Source of the DNA: Candidatus Heimdallarchaeota archaeon
GTDB taxonomy: Archaea > Asgardarchaeota > Heimdallarchaeia > Heimdallarchaeales > Heimdallarchaeaceae
DNA length: 64,000 nucleotides
Assembly (NCBI GenBank): GCA_018238545.1
Contig: JABCTC010000017.1
Coordinates: 1 to 64,000 of the forward strand
Direction of reading: 5' to 3'
Shown here: piece after piece, positions 36,261-36,527 of the stretch
Position numbering within the stretch: position 1 is the stretch's first letter
Layout: each line of letters opens with the position of its first letter
The notes under the pieces: model-generated
What the model was told of the DNA's origin: nothing
Seen by the model: only the letters and a program-made list of their open reading frames with translations
Databases searched by the model: none
Program-made: the position numbers and the translations under genes

Positions 36261-36527
36261 GTTGCAATTGATGAATCAGGGAGAGAGTAAATGCAACAAA
36301 GTAGAAGAAGCTCTAGATATGATTAAAGAAGCTATAGTTGCAATTGATGAATCAGGGAGAGAGTAAATGCAACAACGATTACTCTTATGATGTATATTTA
36401 GATGAAAATTATCTGTTGCAATTGATGAATCAGGGAGAGAGTAAATGCAACACTGTAACCATTTCTGAAAAGTGTACTTATTCTATTATCGTTGCAATTG
36501 ATGAATCAGGGAGAGAGTAAATGCAAC
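36261..36527. CRISPR. CRISPR mini-array: 4 identical 37-bp repeats and 3 spacers (39, 41, 39 bp); no cas genes in the window
   Basis: Repeat GTTGCAATTGATGAATCAGGGAGAGAGTAAATGCAAC at 36261, 36337, 36415 and 36491. Confidence 0.95.

Follow-up and report, generated by a model that had tools for sequence, protein, structure and literature searches.

A cas-less array with type V-F1-like CRISPR repeats on an integrated mobile element of a Heimdallarchaeaceae archaeon

We describe a four-repeat CRISPR array that lies, without cas genes, on an integrated mobile element of about 15.5 kb in the genome of a Heimdallarchaeaceae archaeon, and whose repeat, judged by its sequence, is a distant member of the type V-F1 (Cas14a/Un1Cas12f1) repeat family. 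Cas-less arrays borne by mobile genetic elements (MGEs) are already known; what is new here is that the repeat is of a class 2 type although the lineage is Asgard, and that no partner was found for it. On balance we favor the explanation that the V-F1-family array is cargo of the element and guides a Cas12f-type nuclease, provided in trans, against viruses or rival elements. The alternatives can be ordered from the more to the less likely as a relic, use by the type I-B or type IV effectors of the host, an RNA decoy, and a set of non-CRISPR binding sites.

The array, its element and a related array

The window, i.e. the whole 64-kb stretch of DNA analyzed here, is contig C26 of a 3.63-Mb genome assembly (hereinafter G000; 128 contigs, 91.8% complete, 34% G+C). 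Repeat detection located in it four 37-nt direct repeats, all identical (GTTGCAATTGATGAATCAGGGAGAGAGTAAATGCAAC), which together span 36261-36527 of the plus strand (repeats 1 to 4 at 36261-36297, 36337-36373, 36415-36451 and 36491-36527). Their start-to-start distances are 76, 78 and 76, and the three intervening spacers, all unique, measure 39, 41 and 39 nt (36298-36336, 36374-36414 and 36452-36490). The base A directly follows each copy on its 3' side, just as a first-pass annotation of this DNA had recorded, and the repeat termini GTTGCA and TGCAAC are mutually complementary. The TRF score of the array (250) is far above that of every other tandem feature in the window. The arrangement agrees with the generic definition of a CRISPR array, namely at least three near-identical repeats of 23-50 nt with unique spacers of similar length, and the recurrence of a 37-mer with the 6-nt and 8-nt end motifs of a repeat family, in four copies at CRISPR spacing, excludes a chance origin. 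The feature is a genuine CRISPR array, correctly described in the first-pass annotation, and, according to a whole-genome array search, the sole one in the G000 assembly. No Rfam family scored above threshold in the window, and searches for the exact repeat in viral and metagenome collections, for the repeat core in the viral collection, and for the repeat with up to three mismatches in 59 relatives returned nothing.

The array is placed in a 1.7-kb non-coding stretch that contains no long reading frame. Directly abutting repeat 1 upstream is a leader-like sequence (36194-36260, plus strand), both halves of which recur in a related element of the genome G021. On the other side are a small ORF of 30 aa (36637-36729, plus strand; N-terminus MTWGFGSPREY), which is kept in G021 in an orientation inverted relative to the array, and a small Cys-rich ORF of the pattern C..CxxC..C (36842-36979, minus strand), whose region is the best-conserved stretch between the two elements (91% over 100 nt). 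These are followed by the gene for a 453-aa double winged-helix protein with homologs in the genus (36980-38341, minus strand). An AT-rich region at 36528-36700 had initially been taken for leader-like with respect to the minus strand; as it holds the conserved small ORF at 36637-36729, it is not a leader.

Comparisons with related genomes show that the array rides on an integrated element of about 15.5 kb, with approximate boundaries at 23278 and 38736. The genes flanking it (21995-23152 and 38864-39961) are separated by 15.7 kb in G000. In G002, a genome of the same genus, both lie on one contig at a distance of only about 1.5 kb, and the element is missing from the syntenic site. On the left, DNA homology ends at 23277 (with G002, G010, G021 and G016) or at 23152 (with G001), while on the right it restarts at 38737 (G010) or 38857 (G002). 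Along with these homology breaks, the presence within the insertion of a serine recombinase gene (28943-29692, minus strand; Resolvase, E=1.3e-16) bears out the earlier proposal of a mini-array on a mobile element. Among the other genes of the element are those for a winged-helix AAA ATPase and a ClpP-like protease as well as many ORFans, and housekeeping genes are found outside its interval. A clean att duplication was sought at its ends and not found, the only candidate being an imperfect TGCCTTACAT...TACC repeat near both. Searches for Cas1, Cas2, Cas4, Cas6, RAMP, DevR/Cas7 and Cas3 were blank on contig C26, in agreement with the first-pass view that the 64 kb contain no cas gene; such a location on a mobile element without cas genes is that of an MGE mini-array.

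We also observed a 114-nt segment at the left junction (23164-23277), which is conserved in G002, G010, G021 and G016 and includes 2.7 tandem copies of GTTTAACAACT (23237-23266); it may be a target or binding region of the recombinase. The cargo downstream of this segment differs among several genomes of the genus, which suggests that the left junction is an integration hot spot. Elsewhere in the element, the intergenic regions 31171-31262 and 34277-34400 (minus strand) have in common the 15-mer CTTTCTCTGATTCAT and a nearby T-rich motif. They may be copies of a promoter or operator that was duplicated in front of two plus-strand genes.

Five other species of the genus have a homolog of the 453-aa double winged-helix protein, at 68-71% identity. 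The homolog of G021, on contig C193, is part of a related element with a homologous array of six 37-nt repeats, 31/37 identical to the G000 repeat, and five spacers of 39-41 nt, none of them in common with those of G000; one more solitary repeat and degenerate copies are present nearby. A neighboring gene shows about 74% nucleotide identity between the two elements, the repeat is largely homogenized within each array, and among 399 genomes of the phylum this repeat subfamily is confined to G000 and G021. The existence of homologous arrays, each with its own homogenized repeat and with an entirely different set of spacers, implies that spacers were taken up after the two elements had diverged.

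At least two of the five genomes with homologs of the 453-aa protein have no array nearby, and the homolog loci in G012 and G004 lack repeats within 8 kb downstream; thus, the array is not an obligatory partner of this gene. These loci bear on the alternative that the repeats are not CRISPR at all, and would instead be replication-origin iterons or sites bound by the adjacent double winged-helix (Rep-like) protein. Such a role would be in keeping with the location of the array in a non-coding stretch beside a putative Rep-like gene and with the palindromic ends of the repeat. We consider it very unlikely and the least probable of the explanations, given that the Rep-like gene occurs without the repeats in G012 and G004, that both end motifs and the exact length match a CRISPR family found beside cas operons, that the spacers are of CRISPR length and wholly different between the elements, and that one of them was probably captured from foreign coding sequence (see below).

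Repeat family and direction of transcription

To place the repeat, we scanned for pairs of successive 37-nt repeats that match GTTGCA-N23-AATGCAAC and recovered 15 loci from a database with one genome per prokaryotic species and 28 from JGI metagenomes. These 43 loci derive mostly from DPANN archaea, and also from Methanosarcinales bins, a gammaproteobacterial bin and Candidatus Auribacter. Using Pfam on one locus and HMMs built locally from it and iterated, we found V-F cas genes flanking the arrays at 15 of them: the combination cas1-cas2-cas4-cas12f at seven of the 43, cas12f alone at four (all truncated), and cas1 and cas2, with or without cas4, at a further four. The other loci had too little flanking sequence or gave no match. 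The genes of the seven full operons are co-directional with the repeat when it is read from GTTGCA to AATGCAAC. The repeat of three loci (L018, L063 and L067) is what we take to be the published Cas14a1/Un1Cas12f1 repeat. Loci of the Cas14 family have been described as comprising the nuclease gene, a tracrRNA and the array, in that layout, with spacers of 33-39 nt and a 5' T-rich PAM (PMC7229846).

The G000 repeat bears the signature of this family in its length of 37 nt, its GTTGCA 5' end and its AATGCAAC 3' end. It additionally has in common with the family the tetranucleotide GAAT at positions 13-16 and a purine-rich interior, and its spacers of 39-41 nt are at the upper end of the range seen in V-F arrays (33-41 nt, mode 37-38; n=176). 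Beyond the 14 fixed end bases, it matches the family at no more than 11 of the 23 free positions, and this combination of a common length, common end motifs and GAAT with an otherwise limited match marks it as a distant family member. The first-pass annotation had likened the plus-strand repeat end to that of Cas14a/Cas12f, and the signature loci situated beside cas12f operons bear out that reading. Unlike the V-F1 arrays of DPANN archaea and some bacteria, the G000 array has a diverged repeat interior, an Asgard host and a location on an integrative element, and is accompanied by no cas12f, cas1, cas2, cas4 or tracrRNA anywhere in the genome.

Several lines of sequence evidence favor transcription of the array from the plus strand. 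Besides the direction of the cas genes in the full V-F operons, the 3'-terminal 12 nt of the repeat (AGTAAATGCAAC) are invariant across all variants from G000 and G021, in contrast to its first 10 nt, which are variable; the tag of the crRNA corresponds, in class 1 and class 2 systems alike, to the conserved 3' end of the repeat. Old repeats accumulate at the 3' end of an array, and the two variant repeats of G021 are found at its plus-strand 3' end. Moreover, the sequence upstream of repeat 1 in G000 recurs in G021, in part directly upstream of a repeat. This leader-like region (36194-36260) contains the near-palindrome GTGTCC-ATTTT-GGATAC, which may be a protein-binding site; in both elements, the motif GTGTCC-ATTTT-GGAYAC is seen beside repeats or repeat-like GTTGCA starts (36215-36260 in G000; L087:10470-10500 and 11395-11453, minus strand, in G021). 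The class 1-like handle that had been proposed for the minus strand is disfavored, since the two arrays differ at this end of the repeat, whereas the plus-strand 3' end is the same in both: the putative handle reads ATTGCAAC in G000, while four repeats of G021 have ATTGTAAC and two have AAATGTAAC. The stem that GTTGCA and TGCAAC could form at the repeat ends is a weak one (-5.8 kcal/mol, z = -1.6), and G021 has lost it without compensation.

Search for a partner in the host and its relatives

A local HMM for V-F Cas12f recovered only TnpB-grade matches in G000, the best scoring 97.7 bits, as against E = 1e-131 to 1e-195 for the HMM's own member loci. With 42 matches to the Pfam TNB domain, at about 40 places, this genome is rich in TnpB-like genes. 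We considered four long TnpB-like proteins (553-647 aa) as hidden versions of Cas12f and rejected them, as only their C-terminal TNB end matches; one long TnpB-like gene, on contig C71, adjoins an IS607-type serine recombinase. At the start of the window, 36 kb from the array, there is also a 99-aa TnpB/Cas12f-like fragment of a TNB domain (166-465). Searches for V-F cas1, cas2 and cas4 across the G000 genome, for a decayed cas remnant or pseudogene in its element, and for V-F cas genes on the element contig of G021 were all negative. A profile of eight V-F Cas12f proteins gave matches of no more than TnpB grade, restricted to the C-terminal half, in five genomes of the genus and, among the candidates scored, in 82 genomes of the class (81 besides G000). 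Hence, cas12f, the neighbor expected of a V-F1 array, was found neither in the element nor in the G000 genome, in G021 or, among the candidates scored, in the class. For V-F Cas proteins, this is the outcome that the first-pass annotation had named as speaking against its view, namely no cognate Cas in the host lineage.

The RNA component expected of a V-F1 locus, a tracrRNA with its anti-repeat, was likewise not found: no similarity to V-F tracrRNA regions was detected, and the best anti-repeat run is 15 nt (G-U pairs allowed), within the shuffle null, with a best run of 12 nt in G021. Of the individual candidates, 36973-36987 was rejected because it covers a stop codon together with the start codon of a different gene and is no better than chance, and 34277-34291 and 31171-31185 because they are within the shuffle null.

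In a separate observation, the 3-kb contig C298 of G016 (L106:2-1485, minus strand), which terminates right past cas2, codes for Cas1 and Cas2 proteins that score 251 and 81 bits, respectively, on the V-F Cas1 and Cas2 HMMs; the class 1 Cas1 proteins of the genus score 88-106 bits on the same Cas1 HMM. We examined this pair as a possible V-F adaptation module, for which the 33% identity of its Cas1 to V-F Cas1 is not diagnostic.

The cas genes that we did identify in G000 are of class 1. Contig C75 (L043:8235-11353) codes for a type I-B Cas8b (E=1.6e-102), Cas7b and Cas5, with no cas3, cas6, adaptation genes or array near them. Its Cas8b is missing from the 81 other genomes of the class and has just three remote homologs in 5.8 billion proteins. 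The composition of the contig is ordinary for the genome. A ParA-like gene and a radical-SAM (viperin-like) gene are located upstream of this module, and the G+C content climbs from 0.30 to 0.40 over the last 2 kb of the contig. The second module, on contig C67 (L103:4506-7882, minus strand), comprises type IV Csf1, a 150-aa cas11-like gene, Csf2 and Csf3, has neither an array nor Cas6, and adjoins a PAPS-reductase/CysH-like gene; in this it resembles subtype IV-B. Genome-wide, Cas6, Cas2 and Cas4 were not found, nothing exceeded the family cut-off for Cas3, and Cas1 is represented only by a stand-alone ORF of 106 aa (C36:20604-20924; L006:12605-12925) that matches the N-terminal 75 positions and has no other cas gene or array near it. 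A published survey reports only class 1 CRISPR-Cas from Asgard archaea, with type IV restricted to a branch of Heimdallarchaeaceae and Lokiarchaeales (PMC13700489). The I-B and type IV modules of G000 fit this picture, and the V-F-type repeat is the odd one out.

These modules nevertheless raise the possibility that the array feeds a class 1 effector of the host, either the I-B Cas8b-Cas7-Cas5 complex of C75 or the type IV Csf1-Csf2-Csf3 complex of C67, after the model of the viral mini-arrays of Saccharolobus and perhaps through a minus-strand reading that would yield the handle ATTGCAAC. Both effector modules are without an array of their own, the repeat read on the minus strand has an end similar to the class 1 handle ATTGAAAC, and the type IV module adjoins a copy of the gene family that spacer 2 resembles. 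On a minus-strand reading, however, the marks of a type I-B array, namely similar repeats, a conserved 8-nt handle and Cas6, were not found. The two reference I-B loci closest by Cas7b have 30-nt repeats ending in ATGGAAAC or ATGGAAAT, and in G019, which has the genus's only class 1 locus accompanied by an array, the repeat is of 30 nt and ends in ATTGAAAG; the G000 37-mer is unlike, and unrelated to, all of these. Coupled with the variable putative handle and uncompensated loss of the terminal stem in G021, the failure to find Cas6, or any Cas3 above the family cut-off, and the near-uniqueness of the C75 Cas8b, this makes recruitment of the host's class 1 effectors improbable. The suggestion in the first-pass annotation that the host's own Cas is co-opted fares poorly for the same reasons: the comparison it proposed, of the repeat with host arrays and cas types, revealed no other host array, and the nearest loci of the host's cas types use unrelated 30-nt repeats.

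A further alternative is that the element or its ancestor lost its V-F cas genes and the array is the decaying, functionless remainder. Consistent with this, neither a cognate cas gene in the genome or the class nor a tracrRNA-like sequence was found, the array has four repeats only, and the stranded N-terminal Cas1 fragment on C36 is a sign of CRISPR decay in this genome. In these respects, namely an array without cas genes and CRISPR debris in the genome, it is like the orphan arrays stranded by cas loss. Unlike them, it is kept in two diverged elements, has perfect repeats in G000 and has undergone complete spacer turnover. The G021 element retains a homologous array in the same module, with its own homogenized repeat and wholly different spacers, and the G000 element is free of any cas pseudogene. 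A relic is therefore rather unlikely, although we give it more weight than the other alternatives.

Spacer targets and the possible role of the array

No full match to any spacer was detected across the G000 genome, in line with the first-pass impression that self-matches were absent; this impression did not hold for diverged matches. Spacer 2 aligns over its full length with positions 157-197 of contig C23 (35/41 identical), in frame with a large ORF on this short contig, whereas the best ungapped genome-wide match among 25 shuffles of the spacer was 29/41. It also aligns with the homologous motif on C128. Spacers 1 and 3 were at background level in the shuffle comparison, and neither yielded a credible target. 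Matches of 85% to spacer 1 in G021:C281 and G007:C62 were rejected as chance, for they fall in two unrelated proteins (GNAT and TPR) at an AT-rich helical motif. Against phage and plasmid collections the spacers gave chance-level matches only, 24-nt spacer seeds had no match in IMG/VR, and the proposed database comparison thus produced nothing beyond chance. No targets were found for the G021 spacers, and the spacers of the G000 element do not target the G021 element, or vice versa.

The ORF hit by spacer 2 belongs to a family of ORFan proteins of 1250-1465 aa, further copies of which are on C67, C2 and C128. They form part of a block of five or six conserved ORFan genes, present in three or four copies (C2/L101, C128/L102, C67/L103 and C23/L098), in which no Pfam domains were detected except for a YgjP-like metallopeptidase adjoining the C2 copy. 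The C67 copy (1465 aa) of the giant gene adjoins the type IV module. A search of the viral collection for relatives of this giant, virus-like gene found none. No exact protospacer from which to read a PAM was found; the 5' flank of the diverged C23 match, our sole protospacer relative, reads ...ACAGAT. From these alignments, the true protospacer of spacer 2 would appear to be a relative of the resident virus-like module, outside the assembly. Through this spacer, the array would link the integrative element with a candidate family of viruses that share its host.

Taken together, the maintenance of arrays in two diverged elements, the full turnover of their spacers and the probable viral origin of at least one spacer suggest a weapon, in use now or until recently, in the conflicts that mobile elements and viruses have with each other. 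In the explanation that we favor, the array would be carried as cargo, without cas genes, by a serine-recombinase integrative element of about 15.5 kb in one Heimdallarchaeaceae genus. Transcription from the plus strand would begin in the conserved sequence upstream of repeat 1, and the transcripts would be processed to crRNAs in which the invariant 3' end of the repeat (AGTAAATGCAAC) precedes a spacer. These crRNAs would guide a Cas12f-type nuclease provided in trans, whether from an unassembled locus or from a co-resident plasmid or virus, and the targets would be viruses and rival elements in competition for one host. Within the present assembly, the array is partnerless and is probably idle. 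We infer that guidance of such a nuclease from a replicon outside these bins is the most economical mechanism; V-F systems show an enrichment on plasmids, and competition between elements is the use to which MGE mini-arrays are put (PMC11656645).

Alternatively, the repeat RNAs might soak up the Cas12f of a rival plasmid or virus rather than guide a nuclease, thereby acting as an RNA anti-CRISPR. Repeat units carried by viruses can function in this manner and V-F systems are plasmid-enriched (PMC11656645), and the lack of a partner nuclease in the element would suit a decoy. Most decoys known to date consist of a single repeat unit, in contrast to the regular arrays with CRISPR-length spacers seen here, and the turnover of spacers between elements and the spacer probably derived from a virus-like gene point to guiding. 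Accordingly, we hold a decoy to be very unlikely.

The closest parallels to the G000 array as cas-less cargo are the mini-arrays of the Saccharolobus portogloboviruses SPV1 and SPV2, which are similarly short and cas-less, reside on a mobile element and likely serve competition between elements (PMC11656645, PMC7099407). At least one of their spacers comes from a different mobile element or virus found in that host, as is probably true of spacer 2 in G000. Known MGE mini-arrays bear repeats identical to those of host arrays (PMC11656645), and those of SPV1 and SPV2 do so and use the class 1 effectors of the host; for the G000 array, neither a host array nor a cognate effector was found. There is no second array in the genome, and with the exception of G021 the repeat was missing from the other genomes of the phylum (397 in number). 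Furthermore, the arrays of G000 and G021 have three to five spacers, as opposed to the one or two of the SPV mini-arrays, and a class 2 V-F repeat that is foreign to the lineage.

A bolder proposal, which we put forward as unlikely, is a split class 2 (V-F-like) immunity in Heimdall archaea, with the array on integrative elements and the nuclease and adaptation genes coming from elsewhere. The supplier might be a Cas12f from a plasmid or an unassembled locus, or else one of the approximately 40 TnpB-like nucleases of the host, repurposed to read this repeat. If true, the proposal would add class 2 to the CRISPR activities of Asgard archaea for the first time, and array and effector would form a natural pair distributed over different replicons. 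More generally, the V-F-type repeat belongs to a group of miniature class 2 nucleases that is absent from the survey of Asgard defense systems (PMC13700489). Either an undetected Cas12f-type system circulates in this lineage, likeliest on plasmids or viruses, or these arrays have a purpose other than guiding.
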